A DNA stretch of 35,790 nt from Psammoneis japonica (taxonomy: Eukaryota). The DNA is taken from NCBI GenBank assembly GCA_008632985.1, contig QPGO01000245.1, forward strand, positions 62,001 to 97,790, read 5' to 3'. The translations under genes and the position numbers were made by a program. The stretch's first letter is position 1. Every line of letters begins with the position of its first letter. The notes beneath the pieces were generated by a model. It was given only the letters and a program-made list of their open reading frames with translations. It had not been told where the DNA came from and did no database searches. Positions 5,523 to 35,400 of the stretch are shown here, piece by piece.

Positions 5523-5965
5523 GATGAAAAGGAACAAGAGCGAGCGCTCGTGTTACATGAATAACAACATGTGCAATGGCGAATAATGCGCTCCGTCTTA
5601 TCACTACACAACACAAGACAAAGAACACAAAATCGGGGTTCGCAAAACAAACCTGATCTTGGATTTCAAAATCGTGTAGGATGCAGTACAATCCTACGTT
5701 GGTGCAAATTCATGGAGGAGAGGCGCTGTCAACACTCCGCCCATCAACATAGATCATTGAGATTTCCTCAGCATCAAAGATTTGCATTGAAATACGAGTG
5801 ACATGGTGATAGGAATCATAAGTAAAGCTAACCAATCAAGTTCCATTACGACAAGTTACTTAGGGGAAACACATTCTGCAGAATTCGGATTTCGTTCTTT
5901 TGTGATGAGAGGGAGGAGAAACAATTGTGGAATTTGAACATTATCTACAATGCTTTTAATGTTTA

Positions 5966-8900: not shown

Positions 8901-11096
8901 TGCCAAGTCATTGGGGCACCATCATAGCTTCACTTTGCTCGTTGCACTCAGCCCCAGCTGCAGTGTGTTGAGGATTTCTGCCGGTGAGCACCAAGTTGTG
9001 TCTGCTGTCTGCGCAGCTCTTCCTTGTTGCTCTGTGAATGCAACAGCTTTGTCTCTTGCAAAAAACTGCAGAGGGTCACTTGGATGCCATGCTTGCTGAA
9101 GAGCCGGTGGCAATTTGCTTGTTGGAGAGAAAATTGGGTGCTCTGCATGCACCTGACTCTAGGACCTGGGCTGCATGACCAGAAGTTGCAACCAAGTCTT
9201 TGGTGACAGAAAACTCATTTGCTGTTGAGACTTTGTGCAAAGGTCAGTGCAGATGATTAACTCCACATTGCAGCAACTGTGTGGTTGCCAAGAACAGCCA
9301 TGCAGACTTGCTCAACAGCTCACGGCAGGAAAGCTTGACAAGGCTGCAAGCCACCAAAAAATTGTGTGGCGTGCAATTGGCCAAGCTCAGTCTGTTTCCA
9401 ACAAAGAGAGACTTGTTTCAAAATGCCAACGCAAATTTCTCTGCATTCTCCTCAAGCCATTTTGCCACTGCAAAACAACTCCACATCTTTGGCATTCCCA
9501 GTGCATTGTGTGTTGAAGCTTTGCTCACACCCACCACTGCCACTCAGTGACCAAACCATTGGACAAGTCACTCTGGAGTTTGGAAATTCAAGTCTGCTGC
9601 TGTTGGGGACAAGGTGATGCACAGGGCCACAACCACAGCAACAAGATCAACCTTTCCATGCTCAGCCACAGCTCTCAAAGTCTTGCCTGGGATCTTCCAG
9701 ATGCCACCAGCATCCTCAACCTGTTTTGGGGGGTTGATTGGCACTGTCATGGGGTCCTTTCACTCTGGAGTTTGGAAACCCAAGTCTGCCACTGCTGTTG
9801 TGAACAAGGTGACATGGGGCCACAGTGCCACAACATCAGCCTTGCAGCGCCAACCAAAGTTCTCTCAAAGTCCCACCTGGGGCTCATTGTCCTCTGCTTG
9901 CAGTTGTTGTTGGGTTGGCTGGTGCCATCATGTGATCTTTGCACACTCTGGAGTTGGGAAAGTCAAGTGTGCTCTCACACCTGCTGTTGGGGACAAGGTG
10001 ACATGGGGCCACAGCACCACAAGATCAACCTTTCAATGCCCAGCCACAGCCCTTTGGGTGTTGTCTGGGATCTGCCCAACACCAGCACCAGCACCAGCAC
10101 CCTCAGTTTGCAGCTGTCATGTTTGTTGGCACCATCACAGGGTCTTGCAATGCCCAGCCATCACAGCTCTTAAAGTGTCACCTGGTGTCTGCCAGATGCT
10201 GCCAGTGTCCTCAGCTTGCAACTTGTGATGCAGCAAAACCGCTGGCTTCTGAAGCAGAGTGTTGTGCACTGTGGCTGCACAAATCTCAGCTGGAACATGG
10301 TCCACAAGTTCTCTTTTTTCTGGCACTGCCTCGCTGCATTTCTACAAACTTGACTTTTGAAATGGCCTCATCTTGCAAGACTGCCACAAAGGACAGTCCT
10401 GCCAGGCAACCCTGCAGAGTCAAGGCGATGCCCTCCCCCTCTGGCTTTGTGGCTGCCAGCAGAGGCTGACTGCCTCTTGTCAACTGATGCCCTGCACTGG
10501 GCAGCCCTGTCCAATGTCCACCTTGCTTGCATTGCAAAATTCATTCTTCTTCCAACTGGCAGACACAAGTGCAAGTTTTGTGCCACTGCCTCGTTGCTGT
10601 TGTCAATTGACTTGATGCCAAAGCCCACACATCTGCCTGTCCAGTGCCACCGACACTGTTGTCCTCGGAAGCAAATGCAAGCTTGTTCTTGCTGCCACCG
10701 AGAAACTCTGTTTTGTTCAAGTCATCATTCTCAAGTCTGGTGGCAGGAGCACCTGTTGGACAACCAGATGCCGATGCCACTAACACCTCATCAGCAGCAC
10801 ACAAAAACTGAAATTGACAGTCTTCACTTTTCTCACTCTCGCCAAATTATGATCTGCTTTTCTACTTCTTCTGGACTTCAATCTTGTCAAACCAATCTTA
10901 CCAAGTCAATCTTACCAAATTGATCTTGTCAAATCGCCGCCGCTTCTCAGCCATTCGATTCATCGATCTTGTTCCTCAAGATCGATTGCGGCATTCGTGG
11001 TCGGCTCCGATTTCTGTGGTCATCGGTGGCACGACCCTTCACTCGTGACCGGGACCCAATCACTTGAGTCCCGCTTGAGTCATGTTCCGCGACAAG
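5966..11096. other. TpA- and CpG-depleted, TG/CA-rich decayed repeat block 1
   Basis: TA is nearly absent throughout and CG is scarce in the core (~6150-10930). Contains the 190-bp unit array and Tyr-poor spurious ORFs on both strands. Confidence 0.85.
9569..10222 (+). repeat. Diverged tandem array of ~185-190-bp units (about 3.5 copies)
   Basis: cactctggagtt..gaaa..caagt...ctgctgttg.g.acaaggtga...gggccaca recurs at 9569, 9761 and 9944. The same family occurs at 31261-32160. Confidence 0.85.
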
Positions 11097-17774: not shown

Positions 17775-18695
17775 TTACAGTTTCAAGGCCTGCATCTTCT
17801 GCACGAGCTCAAGCATTTTGGTTTCCATTTCCTTGGCGTCTTTTTTTGCCTGAACGTGGTTTCGAAATGCGTTCTGAATCTTTTTCGCCGCGACTTCCCT
17901 GAGTCCACGTTGGAGCTTGAGACGATTTGCCATTCCTTGAAGAGAAGTGCTGCCATACTGTCGTAGTTCCTCCTGGAGCTTGAGGTGGCGATTCAATACT
18001 TCGATTTTGCGTTCACGTTGGAGCTTGAGACGATTCACCATTCCTTGAAGAGAAGTGCTGCCATACTGTCGTAGTTCCTCCTGGAGCTTGAGGTGGCGAT
18101 TCAATACGTCGATTTTGCGTTCACGTTGGAGCTTGAGACGATTCACCATTCCTTGAAGAGAAGTGCTGCCATACTGTCGTAGTTCCTCCTGGAGCTTGAG
18201 GTGGCGATTCAATACTTCGATTTTGCGTTCACGTTGGAGCTTGAGACGATTCACCATTCCTTGAAGAGAAGTGCTGCCATACTGTCGAAGTTCCTCCTGG
18301 AGCTTGAGGTGGCGATTCAATACTTCGATTTTGCGTTCACGTTGGAGCTTGGTCGCAAGCTTCTCTTTCAAAAACCAACCTCGGATGACGGTATAAATGG
18401 TAGAAAGGACGGGAAGGCGAATGGTCGCACTAGTCTTCTTCAAAAACCAAACTTGGATGACAGCATGAACGGTAGAAAGGATGGGAAGGCGAATGGATAG
18501 ACCTTTCATGAAGAACGCTTTTACTTTTGAGACTTTCGAAACGACGCGTCGGAAAATCAAGAAAACCAGGACGGCCAAGCTCTTCGTCAAAACGAAGACG
18601 CAGAACAAAGCGAGAGGGATTTCCATGCCAATAGAAGCAACAAGAACCGCCATAATGGCGATCTTGAGCATAGCGAAGAGAAGGTAAGCAGTCAT
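17775..18695 (-). CDS. Hypothetical membrane-anchored protein with four 36-aa coiled-coil repeats and an IQ-like motif
   Basis: Open frame (ORF track 17775-18722, first ATG at 18695). Hydrophobic N-terminus, 2x 24-aa repeat, 4x KLQRERKIEVLNRHLKLQEELRQYGSTSLQGMVNRL, then AAKKIQNAFRNH. Confidence 0.6.
   Translation of the reverse strand: MTAYLLFAMLKIAIMAVLVASIGMEIPLALFCVFVLTKSLAVLVFLIFRRVVSKVSKVKAFFMKGLSIRLPILSTVHAVIQVWFLKKTSATIRLPVLSTIYTVIRGWFLKEKLATKLQRERKIEVLNRHLKLQEELRQYGSTSLQGMVNRLKLQRERKIEVLNRHLKLQEELRQYGSTSLQGMVNRLKLQRERKIDVLNRHLKLQEELRQYGSTSLQGMVNRLKLQRERKIEVLNRHLKLQEELRQYGSTSLQGMANRLKLQRGLREVAAKKIQNAFRNHVQAKKDAKEMETKMLELVQKMQALKL
17906..18351. repeat. Near-perfect 108-bp coding tandem repeat, ~4.1 copies
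   Basis: ttcacgttggagctt recurs at 18012, 18120, 18228 and 18336 (period 108). Confidence 0.95.
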
Positions 18696-19548
18696 GGTGA
18701 CAATACTTGCTCTATCGATCACAACAACAGAGAAAGTGAGACGATTTCTGTTCTGATCAGCGTGCAGCGTGGACGTGGATCGAGCAGGAGACCTTCGTTG
18801 GTTTGACGTCTGTTCTATTTAAAAAAACATATGTCCATTAATATAGTTATATTCCGTTGTCCAAACCGTGCTCATTGGCCACGATTGCTCTCAGTTTGGC
18901 CCAAAGTGAAGAATACAATGATCAATGAACATATAGATATATTTAACAAACAAACTACACTCTTCTGATACTGGAACTAAATTGCATCGATTTTGGTCGG
19001 ATGAGTCAGATGTCGCATCATTCATTGTTGCGGTGTAACTGCTACACGGCATGATGAGATTCGCGATGCCGACATCCCCTCTCTAGAGCACCACTCTAGC
19101 TAGCTAGAGAGAAGTTGAAAGCTGAGCATTGCCACAGCTGTTTGAGAAAGGCTGCGTCATTTACCCCCCTGTGTTTCGATGATCGACGCAGCAGTCCAGT
19201 CTCTTGATGCATGTGAGGACGCATGAGTTGCCGCTGGATGATTTGGCCGAAACCCAGTGCAACAAGTGCCAGCATCTTGACGATGAAGAAACAGATGACG
19301 AAGATGCTGCTCATGCTGCTGCTGCGTTTGACAGTCTCCCAATGGAGTTGTTGAAAGATGAAATTTGCCGGATGGAGAGAGTCAGATGCAATGTGCGCTG
19401 CTTGTCAAATCTGGGCGATCATCATCCATCCTCTGGGCTCGGCGCAAAAGTGCAAAGACCTGCTTCATGTTGTGCCAGCATCTAGACACAAGAACAAAAA
19501 AGCCATGGGAAAGGCAAGAGGTCAGATGCACAACACGAGAGCAAGTGG

Positions 19549-20867
19549 GATGTGTTTTCATCCCAGGTGAGAAACTTTTGGACACATCACGAGGTTTTCT
19601 ACGTGTTTCTACATGAGACACACATTTAGCACCAAAAATCTTAGTAAAAAACGAGCTCCATGACAGCAAAAATATATTTTTCCATGTCTCGAACCACAAA
19701 CCACAATTCGCGCAAACCGAAAATGGCACCATGCCGTCGCCATGAACTCGTCCATTCTTGCACCAACGGATGTTGTGACTGAGAAGGCAAGAATGCCGAG
19801 ACAGGTCAATGAGACAACGCTCAATGCGATGATGTGGTTGAAAATTTGATCTTTGTTTTTTGTTGTGCCTCATGGACAGCCTTTTGACTCATGACATTTT
19901 TGATGCCTCTTTCTCTCTTCCTCAGCTTGCGAAGCAGGATTCTCATCAACGCGCTGCTCCATCTGCTTGACACCAGATGCTGACAACGAAGAATGTTTCC
20001 ATGACACGTTGCTGTGATTCTTACAATGTGTCGTCCGCACTTTGAGTCGTCATGGACGACGCTTTTTTGGGTCGTGCGACAACATCAGATTTCGCCACCG
20101 ACAAGAGAATCGTTGTGTGTTCGGTTTTGAGGGTGTGTGAGGATAAAGAATCTCAGATGCAAGTGTGACAGTTTCATCATTGTAAAGTGGAACAATGCCA
20201 TTAGCGACATCTCAGTGTTGCAGCCATTTTATTTCATTCTAAGATAGAACTGGTCATTTTGAGCGGTGAAATTTTGTCAACATTTCATCTTTAACTCTGC
20301 TTGGGCACATCAAATCACATGACAACTGGACACACATTGAACTTTGACGCTGCTGTTTCAATCCTGTTGTTTTATTCACTCAAGCATCCCACACAGGTCG
20401 ACAAATCAGTCGATCTTTGAAATGGCCGATCGCGCAAAAAAATCACGTGCGAAGTCAGTTCCCCCGATTTTTCTCATGCAAACAACGGAGTTAGAATGCC
20501 GTTCTTTTTTGGCATGAGCTCTTCACACAATGAACAATGCGTGCATTCTTTCAAAGCAGTCAGATTCGGTGAAAGAAACAGTGGAGTGGTCTCTCAAATG
20601 CACCAGAATGACAACAACGAGCAGATGGCTGTCAGTTTCACTCCAAAAAATGCCGCTTTCGAGACAGCGCTTTTCTTGCACGCACCCTTCAACCAATGAG
20701 AATGACGGCTGGCTTTTCAAAATAAACATGTCTGTGGAAAGAAGAAACGAAAAATCGGGGGAAAGTCCAGTCAGATTTGCTCGCACAAAAAGCACGGCGA
20801 CGGAAAAGGGACAGACGAAACGTCTCACCTCCGCATGCGCGTTTCTCACCTGGGATGAAAACACATC
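19549..20867. mobile_element. Non-autonomous TIR DNA transposon, 1319 bp, 27-bp perfect TIRs, 4-bp TSD (GTGG)
   Basis: gatgtgttttcatcccaggtgagaaac (19549-19575) is the exact reverse complement of 20841-20867. GTGG lies at 19545-19548 and 20868-20871. An uninterrupted homologue of the flanks lies at 33196-33360. No recognisable transposase. Confidence 0.9.
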
Positions 20868-21801
20868 GTGGCTTGCACAGCAAACAACAAACTGGCACTT
20901 TCCTTTTGAGCTTTCTTTGTTTTTTTTTGAAACTCAGACAAGTTGACAAAAACAGCTGAGGAGGATGAGAAACAAAGTGCTGCAATGTTGCACACCATCA
21001 GAGGCTGCAATGTGGTGGTTTCCACTTTCCTTTGTAATTTTTTAATGTGCATTGTTAAAAGTGGTGACAAGGAGAATGTTCAAACAATGCCAGCAAAAGT
21101 GCCCAACAAAATGCAGCTGTTTTGTGCATTCATCTGATGTCTCATGAACTTTTCTTGCACAAGCTTCAATCAAATGCATGCAATGTTTAATTTAATTGGG
21201 GTTGAAATCTGTGTTTTGTGGTGCATGGTTTGGTTTCCTTTTGACTGCAATCAATTTGAACTTGGTTCTAACTTTGTCCTCCTTGCTCACATGCCTCTGT
21301 CTTTGCATGTGTGCAGTCTGCTGTGCATGCAGTGCTTCATGCTCACACGTGAACCACCTTCATTTTTCTTCATGTTTCCCAGATTTGCACAGCCTGTTGA
21401 TCTGCGGTGTTTTCAGCATGTTTTTGCATGCGCAATTTTCTGCACACTTCACAACAGTGCACCCTCTCCCCAAAATTTGAAAACAAGAGCGTGCACTTTT
21501 GTGATTCAGTGGATCCTGCTTGTGGTTGCAAATCTGCAAATTGGCAACCAGCCATGGCAGTGAAAGACTTTGCCCCATTGGCAGATGACAGCAGCTCAAT
21601 GTGTGGTGAAACCTGCTGTCCTTCTGGCTGGTCAAGATGGGTTTTGATTTGGGCGCAGCTTGAGTTTTGTGATTGCGAGTGTGCTGTCATGAATCTGCCG
21701 CATCCAGAATGCTGAGCTGCTGTTGTGTTGTTGTGTGCATGCATGTCACAAAATTGCTTTTCTGTGGCATTGGTGCAATCGTGTGTGTCAGAGTTTTGCA
21801 T

Positions 21802-22114
21802 CCAGAATCATCACAAGTTGCCGCAAATGACACTCTTCAAACAAGGCATGCACAAAAAGAGGTTCATTGGGGTTTTTGATGTGCTTGCTGACAATGCATC
21901 CATCTTCTCCAATTTCCGCATCTAGATCAAGAAAGACTGCAGGTGGTGCTTGTTCCTGCAGCTCTCAGAATCACATGCATAAAAAGTTCTTTGTGCCACA
22001 TGTGGCACTCTTCAAAAAAGGCATGCACAAAAAAAGCTCTGTTGGTTTTTGATGTGTTCACTTGTGTTGCATCCATCTTCTCCAATTTCTGTGTCCAGAT
22101 CCAGAAAGACTGCA
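21802..22114 (+). repeat. Two diverged ~172-bp tandem units
   Basis: cactcttcaaa.aaggcatgcacaaaaa...tttttgatgtg...tgcatccatcttctccaatttc...agaaagactgcag occurs twice. Confidence 0.85.
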
Positions 22115-22431
22115 GAGGCAGAGAGTGAGGAAGCAACCCCACTGGAGGTTGCCTGGGTTGTTGGGCTTGTTTTTAAAGGCTTCCCAAGTCTCTCCACTGT
22201 TTCTGGTCCCCACTGCAAACACATGTCATTGATGAACCATCCACAGCACAGGAGGTGCGGGGTGAACTTGGTCATTGCCACATGACTTTGTCATTCATGC
22301 AGTGCCTTGCACAGTGTGGCACACATGCAGGCCATGATTGTTCCCACAGCTGATCCCAGCAAGTGCGCTCTGTGGCACCCAAGATGTTTTTTGCTTGCTC
22401 ACATGCTTTTTTCTGTGTTTTCTTTGAGTTG

Positions 22432-22992
22432 CAGGGGTGGAGCTGGGTGCTCGATGTCTTGCACCTCACACCAGCTTCCACATTTGCTTCAGAATCAGTG
22501 GCCCCGGATGCACCAATGCACCGGCAAGTGTGTGTTGTGGTTCATTTTAGTTCATCTACATTGTGCTCTCACAATGTGCTCCATGCTTTTCAGCAATGAA
22601 CAAGGTGGATCAGAGCAACAGCACTTCTGCTGCAAACTTGCCTGCTCCAGAATCAGTGGTGTTGGACACACTGGTGAGTCCATGTTGCCGTTCCTGTGGG
22701 TTGTGTTGGTTCATCTGTGTTGCACTCTCACAACATGTTCCACTCTTTTTGGCAATGAATGAGGTGGAGAACAGAGCAGCGGCACTTCAAGAATGGAGCA
22801 GCAGCTCCTGCTGCAAACTTGCCTGCTCCAGAATCAGTGGCACTGGATGCACCAGTGAGTCTGTGTTGCCCCTGTTCCTGTTGGCAATGTTGGTTCATCC
22901 ACATTGTGCTCTCACAATGCATTCTGCACTTTTTTGGCAATGAAAAAGGCTTCAAGAAAGTGAGCTGCAACTGCTGCTGCAAACTCCAGGGT
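22432..22992 (+). repeat. Dispersed repeat copy A, made of three ~160-bp subunits
   Basis: Colinear with 26667-27254. Subunit contains cagaatcag...gttcatc...ctctcacaa...gcaatgaa; both copies end at ctgcaaactccagggt. Confidence 0.9.
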
Positions 22993-22994
22993 TC

Positions 22995-23861
22995 CAGCGA
23001 CTGCCTCCAGAGATTGGGTGTTTGACAAAACTCAAAGTGTTGAACCTTGGATGTTGTAAGAGACTGACTGAGTTGCCTGATGAGATGGGACAATTGACAA
23101 GCTTGAAGGAATTGCAATTGAGCAACTGCTTGAAGCTTGAATGATTGCCTCATGGTTTGATTCGGCTGTTGCATCTAGAGCAGTTGAAATTGGGCAATTG
23201 CATTTCCCTCACTCAGCTGCCCCCGGGAATTGGACAGTTGCATCAGTTGGAGGTCCTCAACCTTGATTGTTGTTTCAGTCTTGCTGAAATTCCTGTTGAG
23301 ATTGGTCAGCTGTCCAAGCTGAAAACTCTCTCCTTGCGTGGCATTTTGCATTGCACACGAGAATTCTTGGAAAGCATTTGCACAAGCAGTCTGTCGAATC
23401 TGACAAACTTGGATTTGTGCAGTTGTTGTGGTCTTGCAGAGCTGCCTCCTGCAATGGGATCGCTTCGAAACCCAGAGGAGCTGGATGTGGATGGCTGTAC
23501 AAATTTGACTCACATTAGCAAAGAGGTTCTATCACTGCCGAGTCTCAAAAGTCTCGGATTGCGGGGTTGCACTGTGCTCACCATTTCACCCAAAGAAATC
23601 CGCGAGGCTTCGTATTCGGTTCAAAACGTGTACATGTCCGCCCGTGCATCCCAAGATGAAATAGACTGCTACTGTGAAATGAACAAGGCCGGACGACACC
23701 TGCTGCGTCGAGAAAATGGAATTCCTGACGCTCTCTGGCCGCACGTCGTGGAGGGTCGTCGGAGCGACGATAACTTTGTGTTTTGGTTCTTGAAGCACAA
23801 CCCGAACTTTGTCAAGAAAGGAGTTGGAAAAAGAGGAACCAGGAGAGCTCGCGAGGAATAG
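22995..23861 (+). pseudogene. 5-prime-truncated leucine-rich repeat protein pseudogene
   Basis: Frame reads QRLPPEIGCLTKLKVLNLGCCKRLTELPDEMGQLTSLKELQLSNCLKLE*LPHGL..., with plant-NLR-like ~24-aa LRRs and an in-frame TGA at 23142-23144. Ends with NKAGRHLL...ALWPHVV...VFWFLK and starts right after repeat copy A. Confidence 0.85.
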
Positions 23862-24807: not shown

Positions 24808-26559
24808 TCATCGCTTTAGTCGACCAAAATTCAACGCGACAAACAAAGTAACCATTAAAAAGACCGACAAGATCCAAAACGTGGGATACGCCCACTCTTC
24901 CGATAATTCTGGCATGTGAGTAAAATTCATTCCGTACACCCCCGTCAAGAATTGTGCGGGCAAAAACACGGCTGAAATGACAGTTAGAGCGTACAGGGTG
25001 GAATCCATTTGCTGCGACTGGAACTTGTCAGCATCGGAATCGACAGACTCGCAATCCACAATAAGTTGCTTGACCTCTTCGTCGGCGCTCTCCAAGTTAT
25101 CAAGCACATCTCGGAGGTACACGGTAACTCCGTCCTTAATGGCGTCGTCTTCAATCATGTGCGTTAGTAGTCTCGTAAAGGGCTTGAGTCTCCGACCCAT
25201 CTTTTCCAGTTCGCTCCTGAGCTTGTGAATGCGCTTGAGGTTTCGATAGCTATTTTTCTTTTCTAAAAAATCCCTTTCTTGCTCGATTTCATGTCTCATC
25301 TTTTTCACAATGGGATGGATCAAATCCACAGCTTCGTCCAGGAGAGCATAAGTCAGATATTGCGCATCGTATTGTCTCAATTTGGAGTAACTCTTTTCCA
25401 GCTCGTGTTGAACCCGTTGCCAAAGATGGTGCTTGAACCTACTACTGCTCATGTCTGAAGTTGCAGCATGGACGCCATTGTTGGTAAAGGTAATGATTGT
25501 GTCGTCTTTGGGAACATTGACAAAGATACTAACCAGTCTCACGCGTATACTGGTAATGTGCTTGATTCGAGGCTTGTCTCTTATCGTTTCACTACGATTG
25601 GATGGATCCTTTTTGCATTTTTGAAACCACCTACGGATCAATACAGGAAAAAAGCATAGAATCGCCTCGACTGTTTTCCGAAAGGATGACGCAGCACCAG
25701 GGCTAGGGTTTCGTTCCAACGTGGTCCATTCCAAATCAAACACAGGAATCATGATAAAGTAGTGATTGGAATACAATTCTGCCTTGGGTCTTTGAATTTC
25801 CGGTGACAGGGCATCCTCAAGTGCTAATGGATGCAATAGATACTTGATGGCCAAGCGCTTCATGTCCATGGCGGATGCTGCCACCGGCGAAGATGGGTAC
25901 ACATTGATCCATCGAGTCTTGACCCAATCCGCTCTCCTTTGAAAATAAAAATCCCTCGAGTCCATGGTTTCTTGCTGCTGACAATTTCGTAGAGGAGCAC
26001 CTCGATTGAAAACGAGCTTTCGTTCAAACTGAATCGGCTCATAGTCAATCACCTCGAGCGATGGCTCCTCGGGCGGTCCTTCCTCCGACGAGGAACGAAG
26101 AACGATGTTTCGAAGCATAAGAAGACGTATTCCCTCGGAAAATTCTTCAAACGAAATGTCACCGCTCCCATCCAAATCAAGATACTTGACAAGCTGCTGA
26201 AAGCTCGTTTCATCCAACAAGGAAGAATCATGAAGGCCTGCGGTGTGAAACTCGATTCCGTTTCGTAAGGTTTCATACGATATTCTCCCGTCCTTGTCGG
26301 CATCAAACATATCAAAGACGTATTGGAGTCGCTCGGCTGTTAGATCGAGAATGGATTCAAATATGGATTCTTCACCATTCTCATCGCTTATGATTTGTTC
26401 CGACGTGTCGTTATTACTTCCAAGAATCACGTCGGACGATGCGACTGCTGGGTTGACAACTCCCACATGAGAAAGAAAACTTTGCAACGTATCGGGTAAT
26501 CGAGCGGATCCCTCTTCAGCCTGGAGGGTTTCTTCAGCAACAAACTCTCTAGTTGACAT
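24808..26559 (-). CDS. CorA-family Mg2+/divalent cation transporter with N-terminal EF-hand pair
   Basis: Intact 583-aa ORF. EF loops DADKDGRISYE and DLDGSGDISFEE; CorA hallmarks LHPLALED, QRPKAE, YLRDVLDNL, TM1 FLPAQFLTGVYGMNF and MPEL, then TM2. Confidence 0.92.
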   Translation of the reverse strand: MSTREFVAEETLQAEEGSARLPDTLQSFLSHVGVVNPAVASSDVILGSNNDTSEQIISDENGEESIFESILDLTAERLQYVFDMFDADKDGRISYETLRNGIEFHTAGLHDSSLLDETSFQQLVKYLDLDGSGDISFEEFSEGIRLLMLRNIVLRSSSEEGPPEEPSLEVIDYEPIQFERKLVFNRGAPLRNCQQQETMDSRDFYFQRRADWVKTRWINVYPSSPVAASAMDMKRLAIKYLLHPLALEDALSPEIQRPKAELYSNHYFIMIPVFDLEWTTLERNPSPGAASSFRKTVEAILCFFPVLIRRWFQKCKKDPSNRSETIRDKPRIKHITSIRVRLVSIFVNVPKDDTIITFTNNGVHAATSDMSSSRFKHHLWQRVQHELEKSYSKLRQYDAQYLTYALLDEAVDLIHPIVKKMRHEIEQERDFLEKKNSYRNLKRIHKLRSELEKMGRRLKPFTRLLTHMIEDDAIKDGVTVYLRDVLDNLESADEEVKQLIVDCESVDSDADKFQSQQMDSTLYALTVISAVFLPAQFLTGVYGMNFTHMPELSEEWAYPTFWILSVFLMVTLFVALNFGRLKR

Positions 26560-26666
26560 GGCTTATAATCATAATGTGTTGTGCATCGTCGCCATATTCA
26601 CGATGTTGTGCCTCCGCACTCTCCCCATCGCCATCGTCGTGTTCTCGTTTCTCTCGTGATTTTTTT

Positions 26667-27254
26667 CAGGGGTGCGTGCGTGGAGCTGGGTGCTCAACGT
26701 CTTGCACCGTGCACCGGCGTCCACATTGCTCCGGAATCAGCGGCGCCGGACACACCGATGCACCGGCAAGTGTGTGTTGTGGTTCAGGTTAGTTCATCTA
26801 CATTGTGCTCTCACAATGTGCTCTACACTTTTCGGCAATGAATGAGGTGGATCAGAGCAACAGCACTTCTGCTGCAAACTCGCCTGCTCCAGAATCAGCC
26901 ACGTTGGATGCACTGTCAAGTCCATGTTGCATTCCCACAGGTTGTGTTGGTTCATCTGTTTTGTGCTCTCACAATGTGCTCCATGCTTTTTGGCAATGAA
27001 TGAGGTGGAACAGAGCAGCGGCACTTCAAACAATGGAACAGCAGCTCCTGCTACAAACTTGCCTGCTCCAGACTCCAGAATCAGCTGTGCCGGATGCACC
27101 GGCAAGTCTGCATTGCCGCTCCTGTTGGCAGCGACAGTTCACCCACATTGTGCTCTCACAATGCATTCTGCACTTTCTTGGCAGTGAACAAGGTGGCTGC
27201 CAGCAGCAGCACTTCAAAAAAGTGAGCTGCAACTGCTGCTGCAAACTCCAGGGT
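26667..27254 (+). repeat. Dispersed repeat copy B (three ~160-bp subunits), more CpG kept at its left end
   Basis: Direct homologue of 22432-22992; many differences are CG/TG/CA/TA interchanges. Confidence 0.9.
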
Positions 27255-27631
27255 GTTGTCTCTGTCAGCATCATTTGACACAAATGCAAACAACAAAATG
27301 GAGCGTTCATGGTGCAACGCAAAGATTTTAATTTGCAGGTTTTGTGGGGACAGAGGGTGGGCTCTCTCAAGGAGAAAACGTGCCCCTGTTTCATGGTGAA
27401 GCATGATTTCCTCACAGGGAGGGAGGGTCTAATCCCATGGCATAAAAATGTTCATCAATCACAGTTGACATGTTGTTGCCAACTGCAGCCACAACTGTCA
27501 AGGTTTGAAACAACAAAATTTTGCACTGTGACAGATTAAAAAATCACTGGGAGAAAGGTGATCTGGATCACCACAATGCACGCTCTGATGACAAGCAAGC
27601 AGAAGCAGCATCATTGTGCTGCATGGCAAAT

Positions 27632-27873
27632 CTGAAAACTTCTCTGCCATCTTCTGCCAGGGATTTTTGTCATGTCTCACAATGAAAAGCTCCTGTGTCT
27701 CACAAAAACTGACTCTCCAGCCAGACAATGGGGTGGTGGCTCTCAAAGAGCAGAGGGAGCAAAGGCAATGGAATGACAACATGCTGGAACAAGAGCATGC
27801 ACCAAAAGTCAAACATTTTGCCAGCAGGGCAGAAAGCAAACATCACATTGTGAAGGCCAAAATTGCAAAATGC
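27632..27873 (+). repeat. Dispersed repeat, homologous to 33415-33701
   Basis: Shared aacttctctgc...tgccagggatt...gggtggtggctc...gagcaaaggca.tgga.tgacaacatg...cagggcagaaagcaaacatca...ccaaaattgcaaaatgc. Confidence 0.8.
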
Positions 27874-29661
27874 TCTGCTTCACATGGAGCAATGTGTCAT
27901 GTCTTCAAGATCATAGCACTTTTGTCATGGTTTTGTGCTTGAACCCATGTGCCCCACAATGGCAAGTGACCCATTGGATCACAGCATGCTGGGGCTCAAT
28001 CTCAGAGTTGTTGAGCTTGCGTGTGAGGACAGTGTGGCCATGCTGCAGTCTCTGCACATTGTGGATGAATGCGCGCAGCTGACATCTCAAGTTTGGCATC
28101 ATTGTTGCTCAAGTTGAGGACTGAAGTTGTGAGCCAGTGGCCAGGAGATGGCTTCTCTGTGTCCAGAATCTGGCACCAATTCTGTCACTTGGGGCAACTG
28201 TTCTCAAGGTTGGGATCAGATGAAGGCATGGTCTGCCACATGTGCTGGTGACAGGTTTGCCACCTTGTGCAGGCAAAAAGGTGTGATCACAACAGATCCA
28301 GACAAGATGATGCCCACAGTGAGTGGCAAATTGTCCAAGCCAGTCACAGCAGGGAGGGTCTGCATCCATTGCCACAAGAGGAGCTCCTGGTGAGTTGCTT
28401 GAAGCAGCATTCTCCAAGTCAGTTGTGGACAGGGGTCTTGGAAACAGGGGAGCTGTCATGTGTTCTGATGCAGGCAGCAGACCTGGGATGCATGCTGGAG
28501 TTGAGACCCAGAGAAGCTCAAGGTAAAAACCTTGAAATGCAGCCTCACTTGATGTGAAGAGAAAAGTTTGTTCCTGTGTCTGGCTCCAGGGTGCCACCCA
28601 CTGAACATGCAGTTCAAAAGAAGAGCAGTGGGTTTTTTGCCTCTGGCAAAGTGTCACACACACCTCCCAGACATGCTGTGAAACACACCCCATTGCCATT
28701 AAAAAATGGGGGGTCACAAGTCAGCAGCACACACCAGGGGAAATGGAGGTCAGCCAGCTGGAGGCCAGTGGTCAAAAGTGCTGCACTTGCAAGAGTTTTT
28801 GGACAGAGATCAGGCACACACATGTCATCCAAGTCTTCTGTGAGCACAACATGCATGATTTCCATGGTCTGTTCCTGCACTTTGTTGCAAATGGAAGCCT
28901 GCAACTCAGGAACAAGTTGTGTGGCATCATCAAAGCTGTGTGGCAGGGTTGAAAGTTGTGGGGCACCAGGATGTCTGGGTCAGAAGTCAAGTTCAGGATG
29001 AGCCCCAAGACACTTTCTTTGCACAAGCAAAGCTCAGCACAGCTTGGGGAATCATCTGGCTGGTGCATTTCCCCCATGTTCAAACTTGCTGTCCTCAAAA
29101 TCTTGAGAGTTGTCTCCCAGGAGGGGCTCCAGAATTCTTGCAAAGCTGGCTCCTCCAGGTTCTCTGGAAATTGTCCTGTCACTGTCAATGTGCCCTCCAA
29201 GTGTGCTGATCACTGCCCTCTCTTGGCTTCAGTGCAGAGTCATTTTTCCAGAAATCTTGAGCAGTTTCTTGCAGCAAAAAGCAACTTGCCATTGCAAAAA
29301 AGAAGATTCTCTCTGGTTGATGTTGCAAGACTCAGTCATGTGGAGCTGCACATCAGCTGCCCTCAATTCTCTCTCCACAGCCTGCAAACTCAACACCAGG
29401 TTGGGCTGCAAACTGCAAGCAAGCAACGCCAGGCAGAGAAAGCCTCCTTTTGGGGGTGAAGAAAAAAGGATTGGCAAGATCCCCAGCTGTGCAAGATGCA
29501 AACACCCACACACAAGCTCTTCCAGATGGAAAATGCAATGCCAGACAGTTGCCAGCAAGCTGCCTTTCCATTGTGGTTGCCCTGTGGGCACAAAGCTTTC
29601 TGCTCATCAAATCTTCCAGCAAAAACGTCTGTGTGCACACTTCTGCTGCATGTGCAGCACA

Positions 29662-31194
29662 GCTGGAGCCTGGCAACCTGGACACTGGCTGGGCTGAGCA
29701 TCTGCCCTTGAGTGCTCTCAAAAATCAACTGGGTGCCAGATGGTGCTCACACAAAAGAGCGCTCCTCTGTTGGCAAACATGCCAAGGAGCAAAGGGCCCA
29801 GCCCCAACAGCAAGCTGAGCAACAGAAGAGCTCTCAGACCAGAGTGTGATGAGAAGGAAATGTTGAGTCAAAAGCATTGCTCACCTTTTGGAGCAATGCT
29901 CATTTTCAAAGCACTGGCATTGTGTGAGCAGGTGCTGTCTGCAAGTCACAAGGGCCTGCACCATCCTCTGCTCTGTCAGCTGTGAAGCTGATGCTGAATC
30001 AGGAGTTGGTTGTTTTTTGTGCCAAAGGATGCCAGCTGACTTTTTGCATGTCCAATGCTGGCTGCACTCAGTGTGGCAAATTGAGAGGTGAAAGCAATGT
30101 TGTTCCAACCATCAGTCATTGTGCTTTTCACTGATGAAGAAGACCAGCACTGAGGCTCTGCTGCAGCTGTGCTCTTCACAGCTTTGTCATGTCCAAAGCT
30201 CAAAGGACTCTGCCAGGCTCCTTGAGCTTCAATGTTGGGGGATCTTCTCAACTGCACAACAAGTGAGAGAAAGTTGGCACTGACAACATGCTGAAAACAA
30301 GCTGCTGATGGACAACCCCATGAGCTTCAAGCAGCAATGGGCACACTTCTTGATCCCAGGAAAAGTGAAAAAGTGTGCTCTGTCACAAGCACTGGCTTTT
30401 TGGCATGCACTGACAGTGGAAAAGAAAAAGAAAAAGCAAGAAGCACACAGACAAGGAGAGCCAAGAAAAATTGCTTTGTCTTTTTGCTGAGCAACAAAAG
30501 CTCTGGCTTGCCCAAAGCTTGGCAAGCAAAAAATCACAAATGAGAAAAAAAGAGTTTTGTGACACAAAAGAGCTGGCAGAGAAAAAAGGATGGTGAGCAG
30601 GCCTTTGGACACAGTGGGGCAATTTTTGGAAAAAAGACAGCACCCCCACAGCAAGGCCGCCCCACATGTGTGCAAGTGAGTGCTTGGGCCATGGGTGCAC
30701 ATGCTGCATGCTGTGCAGAGTTTGCATGGCAGCATGATCACAGGGAAAAAGCTCCCCTCCTTGCCCCCACTGCATGATCTAAAGGCCTGATGGCAAGCAA
30801 GAGATTCCTGGCTGGAGCCTGGCAACCTTGATGCTGGCCAGGCTGAGCAGCTGCCCTTGAGTGCTCAAAGATCAGCTGGGTGCCAGAAGGCACTTGCACA
30901 AAAGAGCGCTCCTCTGCCAGCAAACAGGCTGAGGTGCAAAGGGCCCAGAGCCCCAAAAGCAAGCCAAGCAATGTCTGGCAGAAGGGCTCTCAGACCAGTG
31001 TGCAACAAAGAAATGTTGGACCAAAATCATTGTTCACTTTTAAAAGAGCAATGCTTGTTGGCAAAAGCACTGACATTGTGGGAGCAGGTGTGCAACCACA
31101 GCTTTTTCCAACACGTCTCATCTGTCCTCTGCCATGAAGCCAATGCTGAATCACAAGTTGGTTGCTTTTTTTGTTGAAGGATGCCAGTTGACTT
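29662..31194 (+). repeat. Diverged ~380-bp direct repeat pair (29662-30042 and 30811-31194)
   Basis: gctggagcctggcaacct...ctgcccttgagtgctc...acaaaagagcgctcctctg...ctctcagaccag...ggatgccag.tgact in both copies, with many TG<->CA swaps. Confidence 0.85.
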
Positions 31195-31260
31195 GTCAAA
31201 ATGTCTGATTTCTGTGTTGCGCATTCCAAATGATCACAAAAGCCAATGCAATTTTTCCAA

Positions 31261-32160
31261 TCATGGAGCACTGTGGCTGGGCATTGCAAGGTTGATCTTC
31301 TGGTGTTGCTGTGGCCCCATGTCACCTTGTCCACAACAGCAGCAGGTTTGATTTTCAGACTCCAGAGTGCAAGGACCTCATGCCAGCACCAACCATCCTC
31401 ACATGCAACAGGTGGTGTCTGGTGGGTCCCAGGCAACAATTCAAGAACTGAGGTTGGGTGCTGTTGCAAGGCAATTCTTGTGGTGTTGTGCCCCTTGTCA
31501 CCTGGTCTTCAACAGCAGCAGAGAGACTTTGGCTTCCAAACTCCAGTTGCAAGCTACAAGCTGAGTGTGCTGGCAGTCTCTGGTGGGCCCCAGGCATGAC
31601 TTTAAGAACTGTGATTGAGCACTCTTGCAAGGTTGCTTTTGCAGTGTTGTGGCCCCATGTTGGTGCTGTCATGGGATCCTTGCACTCTGGAGCTGGGAAA
31701 GTCAAGTCTGCTCCCTGCTGCCAGGGACAAATTAAAGAACTGCCTGGGATCTCCAGACACCACCAATGCCCTCAGCTTGCAGCTGTTGAGTTGATGAGTT
31801 GTTGCCACCATGTGGGGTCATTTCACTCTGGAGTTTGAAAGCTCAAGCATGCTGGCACTGTTGGGGACAAGGTGACATCATGGGGCCACAATGCCCCACA
31901 ACATCAATCTTGTTGCAGCACCCAGCTGCAGTTCTCAGGGTGTCACCTGGGATCCACAATGAAATGCTGCCAGTGCCCTCAGCTTGCTGTTGTCAGGTTT
32001 TTTGGCACCATCACAGGGGTTCCTTCATTCTGGTGCTGGGAGTTTGCAAATGTTGAAGTGTGCACCTCTGGCTGGCTGGGAGAACAAGATGGGGTTGCCA
32101 CAACTGTGCAACTCACTGACCCTGCACTGCTCAGTGCTCAACCACAGTTCTCAACATGTC
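31261..32160. repeat. 190-bp unit family: inverted units (31261-~31660) followed by direct units (~31660-32160)
   Basis: gtggccccatgtcaccttgtcc...ctccagagtg (31311-31369) is the reverse complement of the 9569-10222 unit. Forward cactctggag occurs at 31683 and 31824. Confidence 0.8.
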
Positions 32161-32446
32161 ATCAAGTCTGTGCCAAGCTGCTGGAAACAAGGCAACATGG
32201 AGCCACAACAGCACATGACAACAGCACTGGCAAGGGCAACACTGGCTCATTGGGGACAAGGGGTGCCAGCAGGGGGGGCACTGCTGCTCTGGCTCTTTGC
32301 AGACACACATCCAGTGCCGTGGCCATGCTGGCCCGGTCAACCTCTTGCTCAACCAGCTCCCTTTCTACAACCACCTGCATGACAACTCCATGACCTCTTC
32401 TAACCTCCTGCCTGCAAGTTTCAACCACAGCGACAATGCAACAGCA

Positions 32447-32828
32447 GCAGCAACAAAGGGTGTTGTGCATGTGTGGGCTGGACTGCTGCAAAGATCAGCT
32501 TCAACAGCAGCCCCCCCAGATGCAAACAAACAAGCTGTGTGGAGCAGTGCAAATGCAAAAGTTTCATTCTTGGCAAGAGCCAGCTGACACAACAAAAGCT
32601 GAGATCTCAACCTTCTTTGTGCACGATTTGGTTCACGTGCAGCTGGAACACGTCTGCAGCAACAAAGGGTGTTGTGCATGTGTGGGCTGGACTGCTGCAA
32701 AGATCAGCTTCAACAGCAGCCCCCCCAGATGCAAACAAACAAGCTGTGTGGAGCAGTGCAAATGCAAAAGTTTCATTCTTGGCAAGAGCCAGCTGACACA
32801 ACAAAAGCTGAGATCTCAACCTTCTTTG
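32447..32828 (+). repeat. Identical 173-bp direct duplication (32447-32619, 32656-32828) with a 36-bp spacer
   Basis: Base-for-base identical on manual comparison. Confidence 0.95.
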
Positions 32829-33195
32829 ACAACAGATGCAACTGCACCTGATTGAAGCAATGTTCAACATGTCCAGCTGCCAGACAATCAGGAGCTCACA
32901 CACAGCACCAGGAGCAATGAAAACCAATGGAGCAATTCATTTCAGTTGATTCAAACAATTTAAACTGCTTTCAAGAGCCAATGCTTTGAAATGCTTTTAA
33001 AGAAAGATCCTTGCAAAATGACACAGGCAATGATTGCCAAGCTGACTGGCTTGGCCCCATGGCAAAAAGGCACATTGCTGCCACACAAAACAACACAAAA
33101 AAAAAACACCAGATCACACCCAAGCAGCTTATGAACAATGACAACATTGAAGGAAGGTGCCAACAAACCCAGGACTCTGCATGTGACAACAAAGA

Positions 33196-33360
33196 AAAGC
33201 CCAGGGAAAGGCAAGAGGTCAGATGTGTGACACAAGAGCAGGCAGCTTGTGCAGCAAACAACAAGCCAATGCTTTCCTTTGCACTTTCTTTGTCTCTTGA
33301 AACTCACACAAGCCAGCAAAAACAGCCAGAGACAAGAAACAAATGCTGCAAAATTGCACA
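33196..33360 (+). repeat. Uninterrupted (empty-site) homologue of the repeat split by the TIR element at 19549-20867
   Basis: gggaaaggcaagaggtcagatg...gagca matches 19507-19543 and runs directly into cttg..cagcaaacaacaa...ttgaaactca.acaag, which matches 20872-20995. Confidence 0.85.
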
Positions 33361-34110
33361 CAGGCAAGCAGAAACAGCAGCATTGTGCCATGCTTGCCAA
33401 AGAAATGTGTCAAACTGACAACTTCTCTGCACTGTTTTTTGCCAGGGATTGTGCTGTCATGCCTCACAGTGAAAAGAGGGGTGGAGCATGACTTGATGCC
33501 AGCACAGCAAAAAATGCCAAGAAGCAAGATGGGTTGCAAGAAGAGACAATGGGACAGATGGCAGGGTGGTGGCTCAAAAAGCATGGAGAGAGCAAAGGCA
33601 GTGGAGTGACAACATGGGCTGAGAGCATGTGCCAAACAACAAACACTGCCAGGGCAGAAAGCAAACATCAGCACACGCTGGAAACCAAAATTGCAAAATG
33701 CAAGCAAATTGACAAACAAATCAAATCAAATGCTGGCATGATCCAGTCAACAACAAACAACAACAATTGAGATCCACAACTCAGGTGTGTGTGCACAGAA
33801 ATGAGCCATGTTGCACTTGTTGTTGTTTCCCACTTTGTTGATTTGGTTGACAACTGACAACCCAGCATTCACAACATTGTTGCACAGCTGTTGGGTTCAA
33901 GCTGATCATGTCAAGAGCCTGCACATTGTGAGACCAAATTTCCTCAAGTCTGGTTTCCCACTTTGCTGATTTGGCCAATTGTGAAAATCCATTTGCTCAC
34001 AATGAAGAAGCACCATTTGACAAGAGCACAAGCTTCTTGTCAAGCAAGTTTCAACTCTGAACAAGAGCAGCTGCATTTTTGTCAGACAGCTGTCAAGAGT
34101 GCAGCACCCA

Positions 34111-34549
34111 TGAGCAGTGATCACCTCCATTTTGTGGGAAAAAACTGTCAAACATTTAAGTGGACAGACATGTTTCAATGGTCACATCTCTGCTGCAAAC
34201 CCTGTCATCCGAGCAAACCCTCAGTGCCTTGCCCCCCCTTTTTGCATGTGAGAAATTTGGTTCTGCCATGTGTTTTCCCCAGAAACTCGTGCTCAGTCAT
34301 TTGGCATGGACTTGGCACGAATTCCACATGGAATTTGCACCAAGTCTGTGCCATTTCTCTCAGACCGCATTTTCCGACAAAGAGAATGAGTGAAACGAAT
34401 TCCTTGCACAACACACAAAAAGGGGGGGTGAGGCACAGAGGGTTTGTTCAGATGACAGGGTTTGCGGCGGAGACATGATCATTGAAACACATCCATTCAC
34501 TCAATTGTTTGACATTTTTTCCCCACAAAATGGAGGTGATCACTGCTTG
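34111..34549. mobile_element. Foldback/MITE-like palindromic element (~440 bp)
   Basis: ~140-bp outer arms (agcagtgatcacctccattttgtggg... / ...ccccacaaaatggaggtgatcactgct) plus an inner 52-bp palindrome at 34302-34353 on nearly the same axis. No TSD identified. Confidence 0.75.
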
Positions 34550-35268
34550 TCCTTGGCTGTGCCCACACGAGTGGAAGACTTGTGCTGCAGCCCCAACCAC
34601 TGCCCCCCCTCCCTGCAGGCTCAAGGCACCCTGAGACACATGTGGGCATGACTCCTGCAACCAATTTGGTGGCAACAAAGTTCCCTGAGGAGGTGCTCAG
34701 CATCTGGGGTGCCACACATGACAAAGCTGGCTGGCAATGAGAAATGATGACACTGGACTTCCATGCACCACTGCTCTTTGCCTGTGCTGGTGCTGCTCAA
34801 TGGGGGGTCACAAGATGACTCAGCAAAACTTTGCACTCTTGTCTTTGCCAGCTTTTTGACCTGGTCTTCAGGGAGCTTTCATTTTGAAACATCAAACCTG
34901 AGGACTTCACTCTCAGCATTGCCCACACTTCTGGCAACAGAACAGCACCAACAGAGTCTCTGTGCATGAACATCAGAAGGCAGCAGACCAAGTTTGTGCT
35001 GGAGGGTCTGCATGTGTCAACTCCAGCTGTGAAGGACAAGTGTTTTGTTTGCTGGCAATGAGGAGCTTGGGAGGCATTCATCTGGACAGAGTGTCAGCCC
35101 CACACCAAACCCCCCCCCCCCCCCCCCCAACACGTGTCAGACTGTGGCTCCTGCACTTCAGCTCAACCATTTGCAGACTCTGTGTTCCACATGGAGCAAT
35201 GTGTCATGGCTCCAAGATCAGAACAGGAGGTGATCACTGCTTGTCCTCGCCCGTTTCTTTGAAATGAC

Positions 35269-35400
35269 TAGAGACTACCGGGTAGGATAACTTTCTCTAC
35301 TCTATGTAGCTCTAGAGAGCTAGAGAGTTGGAGTAGCTACAGGCTAGCTCTAGCGTAGAGTTTACCGTAACTACTAGAGAAGTAGCTTTAGTATATAGAG
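35269..35400. other. TA-rich (CTAG/GTAG/CTAC) low-complexity tract at the edge of block 3
   Basis: About 23 TA dinucleotides in ~130 bp. Confidence 0.7.

Follow-up and report, generated by a model that had tools for sequence, protein, structure and literature searches.

A TpA-to-TpG/CpA footprint alongside CpG loss in non-coding repeat blocks of the diatom Psammoneis japonica

Hypermutation specific to the dinucleotide TpA has been reported once before, in a 2026 preprint on one rhizarian alga, Bigelowiella natans, where de novo TpA→TpG/CpA changes were described in integrated viral DNA (Mettrop et al. 2026, bioRxiv, 10.64898/2026.01.13.699255; statements on B. natans in this text follow the part of the preprint that was available). 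In mutation-accumulation lines, 231 of 302 nuclear single-nucleotide mutations fell in two integrated viral regions, and 230 of these 231 were A→G or T→C, all at TpA. The rate was about 6e-7 per site per generation, approximately 1000 times background, and it was seen in only some of the lines. The B. natans genome also contains 124 clusters of 1-kb windows that are depleted of TpA and enriched in CpA plus TpG. An ADAT2-like DNA adenine deaminase, with a defensive role like that of repeat-induced point mutation (RIP), was proposed for this organism but not proven. Diatoms and CpG (0 occurrences) are not mentioned in the available part of the preprint. Here we describe the same signature, now saturated, in a diatom. 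The sequence is a stretch of 35,790 nucleotides from Psammoneis japonica (GenBank assembly GCA_008632985.1, contig QPGO01000245.1, positions 62,001 to 97,790 of the forward strand; hereafter the window), in which three non-coding blocks are strongly depleted of both TA and CG.

Several other processes alter DNA or RNA in a base-specific manner. Fungal RIP changes C to T mainly at CpA, creating TpA. APOBEC enzymes deaminate C in TC or CC of single-stranded DNA, which results in strand-asymmetric G→A changes. Diatom transposable elements are major targets of DNMT5a-dependent CG methylation, according to the available part of the source (PMC9998398). A-to-I editing of the ADAR, ADAT and TadA type prefers a 5' U or T, and the ADAT2 enzymes of amphioxus (BjADAT2) and Trypanosoma (TbADAT2) are reported to deaminate both A and C in DNA, as cited in 10.64898/2026.01.13.699255. 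In a literature search, neither TpA loss from diatom repeats nor TpA hypermutation co-occurring with CpG loss turned up. An initial annotation of the window, made from its letters, had proposed a TpA-directed mutator and was not aware of a described mechanism; the second part of that statement has been overtaken by the B. natans preprint.

Three blocks depleted of TA and CG

Dinucleotide content was expressed as the ratio of observed to expected counts (o/e), and the gene islands of the window (16,702 bp, mostly coding) served as the baseline. The blocks occupied approximately positions 5965-11096, 19163-23497 and 26596-35268 and had sharp edges. In the block cores, o/e was 0.03-0.08 for TA, 0.07-0.19 for CG and 1.79-1.98 for TG/CA. 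The corresponding values in the gene islands were 0.61, 1.02 and 1.14-1.15, at densities of 0.043 TA and 0.056 CG per base; the islands thus keep both dinucleotides, as the initial annotation had stated. Counts per 500-bp step separated the two kinds of sequence as well, with approximately 12-43 TA in gene islands versus 0-5 in blocks, 19-41 CG versus 0-8, and 50-87 TG plus CA versus 100-125.

Block 3 is a TA-free domain (26596-35268) around a CG-poor core (27133-35132), and its right border at 35268 is sharp. Whether the left limit of the core was set at 27053 or 27133, the sequence up to 35268 had o/e values of 0.03 for TA and 0.07 for CG; from 27133 onwards, TG stood at 1.92 and CA at 1.80. 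At island density, the 8136 bp from 27133 to 35268 would contain about 350 TA and 459 CG; 18 and 33 were present, and the Poisson probability of the TA deficit was about 1e-122. The same numbers of TA and CG (18 and 33) were counted in 27300-35267. The longest runs free of TA measured 2079 bp (28701-30779) and 1690 bp (6494-8183, in block 1). TA counts given in the initial annotation were exact: 18 in 27300-35267, none in 28702-30779 and 23 in 35268-35400. These last 23 lie within about 130 bp and make that segment the compositional opposite of the adjoining block.

Block 1 consists of a TA-free domain (5965-11096) with a CG-poor core at approximately 6141-10591, and is interrupted by a short TA-bearing 14-bp tandem repeat at 10878-10935. 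Its core, taken as 6232-10780 (4549 bp), contained 8 TA (o/e 0.03) and 30 CG (0.10), with TG at 1.87 and CA at 1.80. Block 2 is divided into three zones. The left part (19163-21034) had a TA o/e of 0.14 yet retained CG (0.80); the right part (21035-23176, or to 23497 with the margin) had values of 0.08 for TA and 0.17-0.19 for CG; and the right margin (23177-23497) held no TA and 6 CG. The description of three blocks lacking both dinucleotides, as first given, therefore holds with the exception of the left part of block 2.

Transitions at TpA and their separation from CpG loss

Pyrimidine-purine (YR) steps were as frequent in the blocks (0.237-0.249 of all steps) as in the islands (0.242). Because transitions preserve the pattern of purines and pyrimidines, this unchanged fraction matches the expectation for pure transitions. 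When all TA and CG steps in the islands were randomly converted to TG or CA in a simulation, the TG/CA o/e became 1.95, compared with an observed 1.83-1.88, and the TG/CA excess equalled the combined deficit of TA and CG.

The blocks are mosaics of repeats that are common within and between blocks, which allowed paralogous copies to be compared. Family F1 forms two arrays on the forward strand, one at 22408-23020 (about three tandem units of approximately 170-190 bp each) and one at 26648-27275, at the left edge of block 3, which retains more CG; the arrays are 81.6% identical over 614 columns. Family F2 has tandem units of about 190 bp at 9568-10219 (forward strand) and is common to block 3, where units lie in both orientations at 31260-32041. 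Its units showed 8 TG+CA sites and 1 CG+TG+CA site, and no TA was retained in any unit compared. A direct repeat pair (29662-30042 and 30811-31194, forward strand) is 76% identical, and 22 of its 67 mismatches are YR interchanges, many of them CA↔TG swaps. Such interchanges also account for 42 of the 95 mismatches in a 435-bp palindrome (34113-34547) with arms that are 75% alike. Inside the purged core of block 3, a 209-bp tandem duplication (32447-32828, forward strand, 1.8 copies) is 100% identical, either for want of TA and CG substrate or because it is very recent.

Across 25 paralogue alignments within the window (5645 columns), adjacent double transitions of the type CA↔TG numbered 133, whereas the AC↔GT control gave 22. 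The remaining classes numbered 17 (AT↔GC), 14 (CC↔TT), 5 (AA↔GG), 3 (AG↔GA) and 1 (CT↔TC). Such an excess would arise if the copies had each, on their own, converted an ancestral CG or TA. TA was the least conserved step in these alignments: at 26 aligned TA sites, both copies carried TA in 2 cases, and the partner was TG in 16, CA in 8 and CG in none. Aligned CG was conserved at 10 sites and faced TG at 33 and CA at 24. Among 15 variable sites of the six F1 units at which every unit carried a YR step, 3 showed TA+TG+CA, 2 CG+TG+CA, 2 CA+CG, and 8 TG+CA only. The three-state sites bear on polarity because a change between TG and CA takes two steps unless TA or CG was ancestral.

Differences between the window and other genomic copies were also examined. 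Forty of 1524 such differences were listed; 18 of these, in blocks, were analysed, and 4 transversion rows in the margin containing a leucine-rich repeat (LRR) open reading frame (ORF) and 18 rows outside blocks were set aside. At 3 of the 18 (20051, 20235 and 26938) the other copies had TA where the window has CA, and among the rows listed this was true of all 17 contigs at 20235 and all 5 contigs at 26938. At five, CG stood opposite TG or CA of the window, and the rest comprised two CA↔TG swap pairs, 5 transversion rows and 1 other transition.

A TpA→TpG/CpA process alongside CpG loss is thus supported as a footprint. The initial annotation had postulated such a second process, acting by transitions apart from CpG decay, and it is sustained by the YR fraction, the TG/CA excess and the 133 versus 22 swaps; the TA+TG+CA sites, the TA in other copies and the zones that lost TA and kept CG lend it further support. 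Alternatively, the blocks may have been born, or selected, free of TA and CG with no special mutator, for example through avoidance of a nuclease, of TATA-like sites or of stop codons. All core families are equally purged, down to the F2 units, and an element inserted into block 2 (described below) is poor in TA although it arrived after its host block was converted, both of which this alternative would accommodate. However, the same state is found across several unrelated families and in flanking margins, the YR fraction equals that of ordinary sequence, one site is TG in one paralogue and CA in the other 133 times, and TA persists at three such sites and in other genomic copies. Codon-level selection is moreover inapplicable to non-coding blocks. 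We consider an origin without a mutator very improbable.

The TA-free domain extended past the CG-poor core at each of the six block edges. Its limits, compared with those of the core, were 5965 versus 6141 (left) and 11096 versus 10591 (right) for block 1, 19163 versus 20868 and 23497 versus 23162 for block 2, and 26596 versus 27133 and 35268 versus 35132 for block 3. Three of the margins contained 0 TA and 17 CG (5965-6221), 0 TA and 14 CG (19163-19482) and 4 TA and 26 CG (26596-27132), with Poisson probabilities of 1e-5 to 1e-6 for each TA deficit.

A similar state was found in an element of 1319 bp nested in block 2 (19549-20867), which is bounded by 27-bp terminal inverted repeats (TIRs; 19549-19575 and 20841-20867) that are 100% identical and is flanked by a 4-bp duplication, GTGG. 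The element contained 18 TA (o/e 0.18) and 62 CG (o/e 0.95). A paralogue of its flanks at 33188-33361 lacks the element and has GCAG as the empty site; contigs assembled from a public sequencing run (X1, see below) tie the flanks to this paralogue through the joints 20956→33357 and 33249→20923. Because both copies of the duplication already read GTGG and the empty-site paralogue reads GCAG, the element is younger than the conversion of block 2. It looks like a non-autonomous DNA transposon. Summed X1 word depth was approximately 10,000 over the element versus 100-180 over genes; Pfam yielded no domain in it, and its 27-nt TIR sequence had 0 matches among viral contigs.

TA loss is separable from CG loss and is not a by-product of CpG decay. 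Because the block edges and the TIR element lost TA yet kept CG, the TA process is wider, faster or both. Deamination of 5-methylcytosine (5mC) at CpG as the sole process was considered and rejected: it fits the CG part (57 CG↔TG/CA pairs), but TA was also lost, over a wider domain.

The edges and the TIR element also bear on whether a single chromatin-targeted deaminase system could strike both A in TpA and C or 5mC in CpG, with CpG loss as part of the defence. Such a system would explain why both dinucleotides yield the same products to a similar depth in the cores (TA o/e 0.03, CG 0.07-0.10). The share of CG in core steps (0.5%, versus 23% for TG plus CA) implies a forward/back ratio of about 46, which exceeds that of vertebrate CpG decay. 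ADAT2 enzymes (BjADAT2 and TbADAT2), moreover, are said to deaminate A and C, as cited in 10.64898/2026.01.13.699255. Nevertheless, TA was lost without CG at six edges and in the TIR element, which points to a different reach or different kinetics; CpG is absent (0 occurrences) from the available part of the B. natans preprint; and the known CG methylation of diatom transposable elements, as described in the available part of PMC9998398, already explains the CpG loss. We regard a single system as unlikely.

Both strands were affected, with TG/CA counts of 517/524 in block 1 and 895/1006 in block 3. No strand-coherent runs of TG or CA outcomes were found at neighbouring sites (same orientation 44, different 65). 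TA made up 0.2% of core steps and TG plus CA 23%, from which we infer that, at equilibrium, TA→TG/CA would be about 100 times or more faster than the transitions that recreate TA. RNA editing of the ADAR type, fixed by reverse transcription, was considered as a source of the changes and is disfavoured: TG and CA are about equally frequent, strand-coherent runs are lacking, and the changes extend to a TIR element of the DNA type.

Since TpA reads the same on both strands, sequence alone does not tell A→G from T→C. The change could therefore lie on the thymine side, for example through a hydroxymethyluracil-type base miscopied as C, or in biased repair at weakly stacked TpA, options that the initial annotation had named. 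Nothing within the window supports these. Among the matches listed in a search for hydroxymethyluracil in diatoms, most papers concern dinoflagellates and no title links the base to diatoms, and the sole experimental precedent, B. natans, has been read as adenine deamination, without proof. We think thymine-side chemistry or biased repair quite improbable.

The surviving TAs of the cores (6232-10780, 21035-23176 and 27133-35268; n=38) stood mostly in a T-TA-A context. A 5' T flanked 21 of the 38, versus 136 of 718 TAs in the islands, and a 3' A flanked 25 of the 38, versus 181 of 718. Among trinucleotides containing TA, depletion in the cores was strongest for TAT/ATA and TAC/GTA. This context may reflect a flanking preference of the mutator for TA followed by a pyrimidine, or else the way in which new TAs arise.

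Agreement with sequencing reads and other features of the window

Run X1 is public, its platform is not on record, and it is possibly the assembly's own sample, so that it does not constitute a second chemistry. In this run, 88% of the sampled words of the block 3 region were present. Contigs derived from its reads (word depth approximately 56-80) matched purged stretches with 0-3 differences per 507-1556 bp. In block 3, the matches covered 27518-28398 (3 differences), 28382-29937 (2 differences), 29923-30407, 31970-32476 and 33372-34070 (0 differences each), and 30609-31695 (0 differences and 1 gap). Contigs of a second run, X2, covered only parts of the gene islands and block edges, and a third run, X3, gave none over the window; interpretation was confined to the covered parts. 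The TA/CG-free letters are what the reads say. Short reads with TA at these positions were named in the initial annotation as grounds for giving up its reading; in the stretches listed, the X1 contigs reproduced the purged letters, albeit possibly from the assembly's own sample. Transitions accounted for 972 of 1464 in the X1 difference totals, which carry no sequence context.

These matches also bear on the possibility of an artefact, in which sequencing, base-calling or polishing erred at modified bases and the true DNA contains modified CG and TA. Long-read base-callers do err at methylated motifs, and neither for the assembly nor for run X1 is a platform on record. However, the X1 contigs, at word depths of 56-80, agree with the purged core to within 0-3 differences per 507-1556 bp. 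An artefact would also not produce TG in one paralogue and CA in another and yet leave perfect 27-bp TIRs and a perfect 209-bp duplication, and in the margins and the TIR element CG reads normally while TA is missing. An artefact is, in our judgement, extremely improbable.

Summed X1 depth over 27732-31193 was 85-156, versus 108-181 over the neighbouring CorA gene, contig depth being a weak measure of copy number. By this weak measure, approximately 3.5 kb of block 3 had no extra X1 copies at a likeness of at least 80%. The initial annotation had placed the process within repeats. Most of the block sequence is repeated, but the 3.5 kb appear single-copy-like on the same weak measure, and repetition would be no more than a candidate trigger.

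Pfam searches of 148 of the 154 six-frame pieces of at least 70 amino acids from the blocks found no viral or transposon domain above cut-off; the six pieces left out lie in 23278-23515 and 26553-27275. The only match above the curated cut-off among the 148 was an LRR ORF at the edge of block 2. Rfam gave 0 matches at gathering thresholds. Many ORFs of 150-240 amino acids are present in the blocks. These are the expected outcome of the loss of TAA and TAG and are spurious. With TGA as the sole remaining stop, TA/CG-free sequence misleads gene-finding programs through its long spurious ORFs; its composition could also offer an easy way to recognize silenced DNA.

The LRR ORF (23145-23861, forward strand) matches LRR families of Pfam, and its 5' part overlaps the TA-free margin of block 2. 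Its first 350 bases lie in this margin, and the product has no tyrosine there. Contigs of X1 and X2 at 80-90% likeness suggest a multi-copy LRR family. The ORF may be a gene into which the TA process has partly extended. Between blocks 2 and 3 lies an EF-hand/CorA ORF of 584 amino acids, for which 126 proteins were matched at E ≤ 1e-3. The top match overall was 56% identical, and the best named relatives were from Nitzschia inconspicua (44%), Bacillariaceae (45%) and Pseudo-nitzschia (42-43%), which points to a diatom source lacking close relatives among the proteins searched. A metagenome scan with this protein for other diatom loci kept 80 loci, all bacterial-type CorA at 23-32% identity.

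The TA-rich segment that abuts the right border of block 3 (35269-35400) is rich in CTAG, GTAG, TAGAG and the octamer CTAGAGAG. This octamer occurs seven times in the window (2186, 3927, 19079, 19104, 26545, 35312 and 35320), compared with 0.53 expected, and none of 100 shuffles reached seven. Block edges are no more than about 100 bp away from five of the seven copies, which flank block 2 on its left and block 3 on both sides (on the left near the start of the CorA ORF); the octamer is possibly a promoter or boundary motif. A C run of about 20 nt is located at 35110-35130, within block 3 and 140 bp from its right border. Outside the blocks, a 108-bp tandem repeat at 17906-18351 (4.1 copies, 98% matches) lies in a 347-residue ORF on the reverse strand (17775-18818) and encodes in-frame 36-residue repeats with only weak coiled-coil-like Pfam matches; a similar 108-bp repeat (1.9 copies, 80%) is present at 4424-4630.

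Interpretation and comparison with known systems

Judged from its sequence, each block is probably an old non-coding repeat mosaic between genes in which two context-specific transition processes have come near to completion. The first would be a TpA-specific hypermutation that converts TpA to TpG or CpA (A→G on either strand). Its most likely cause would be an enzyme directed to silenced or foreign chromatin that deaminates adenine in DNA to inosine; the signature is the same as that in B. natans. The second would be CpG→TpG/CpA loss, most simply by deamination of 5mC, given the DNMT5-dependent methylation of CG in diatom transposons. The TA process would reach wider, extending a few hundred bases into the flanks and into the later TIR insertion that still has its CG. 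From the footprint we infer in which direction most sites changed, how large the rate excess is, and that an enzyme, a targeting signal and a function in silencing and defence are involved.

Several points weigh against this interpretation. Polarity rests on few sites, namely three three-state sites and three read-derived rows, and the CA↔TG swaps by themselves can be assigned to neither a TA nor a CG ancestor. The copies are old (948 paralogue mismatches, with 332 transversions and 347 YR interchanges), so that a long slow bias and bursts are indistinguishable. Conversion does not explain the low AT (o/e 0.72 in cores versus 0.93 in islands), the high GC (1.34 versus 1.05) or the raised G+C content of the cores (0.493, versus 0.457 after simulated conversion of island sequence), and the islands represent the ancestral sequence only imperfectly; these features may stem from a weaker A:T→G:C bias at steps other than TpA, or from an ancestor of different composition. 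Part of the TA deficit of the TIR element could stem from its family consensus. The reads of X1, of unrecorded platform, may be the assembly's own data. With no viral or transposon domain found, foreign origin is shown for the TIR element only. Finally, the evidence from this organism consists of a sequence footprint.

We also considered, as a doubtful but consequential extension, that the blocks record a two-base analogue of RIP in diatoms. One heterochromatin-targeted deaminase system would erase both TpA and CpG, striking new insertions first at TpA and leaking over a few hundred bases into adjacent genes and promoters; it would be shared with rhizarians and ancient in the SAR supergroup. 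If this were true, the purged blocks would amount to a lasting archive, still legible, of all that the genome ever silenced.

New in this window are the diatom host, the near-saturated depletion, the nesting of CG-poor cores in TA-free domains, and the reach of the TA process, spatially wider than CpG loss, into a DNA transposon and gene-proximal margins. Diatoms are a different, ecologically dominant lineage with genetic tools, and the occurrence of the footprint in them suggests that the process is widespread. It becomes possible to test for a deaminase or base modification that co-occurs with the signature across diatoms, for the mark that defines the target, and for leakage into neighbouring genes.

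Among known systems, fungal RIP resembles the state of the window in that dinucleotide-specific transitions ruin silent or repeated DNA in blocks and leak into flanks, an analogy also drawn for B. natans (10.64898/2026.01.13.699255). Most of the blocks consist of repeated sequence, which bears on RIP's restriction to duplicated DNA, although the measure of copy number is weak. The direction, however, is opposite: the window loses TpA (o/e 0.03) and gains CpA and TpG (1.8-1.9). Membership in the fungal RIP family is excluded, as a rise in TpA and a fall in CpA and TpG would be expected and the reverse was observed. CpG decay driven by 5mC accounts for CG→TG/CA in the cores and for the CG+TG+CA three-state sites, but it cannot remove TpA, and the TA-free domains extend beyond the CG-poor cores that they enclose. 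Editing of the ADAR, ADAT and TadA type shares the A→G change with a 5' U or T preference; its known roles are on RNA, whereas the change in the window is at the DNA level, given the affected DNA transposon, the involvement of both strands and the lack of strand coherence. APOBEC3 offers a likeness as deaminase-driven, context-specific hypermutation in defence, an analogy taken from the same preprint, and differs in that the window has TpA and CpG as targets and a strand-symmetric outcome.

The closest system is that of B. natans. As there, the changes are TpA→TpG/CpA on both strands and form block-shaped clusters in poorly annotated and, for the window, presumably silent DNA; the B. natans process can act on non-repeated sequence, as that in the window may. 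A→G and T→C changes confined to TpA, which characterize B. natans, are found here as a footprint. Under the thresholds used for B. natans, which were set on another genome, 16 of 35 1-kb windows pass, including runs of five (6001-11000) and eight (27001-35000). The two cases differ in that de novo mutations were measured in B. natans, whereas the Psammoneis window presents the accumulated result. Depletion in B. natans is partial (Rho_TpA 0.45 in a region derived from a nucleocytoplasmic large DNA virus, NCLDV), whereas in the window it is near total (TA o/e 0.03), which makes the diatom footprint far clearer. The targets in B. natans are viral insertions; those in the window are non-coding repeats, a TIR transposon and gene-proximal margins in which no viral domain was found. 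CpG is also purged in the window, and is not mentioned for B. natans in the available part of the preprint. Finally, B. natans is a rhizarian, and the host of the present footprint is a diatom.

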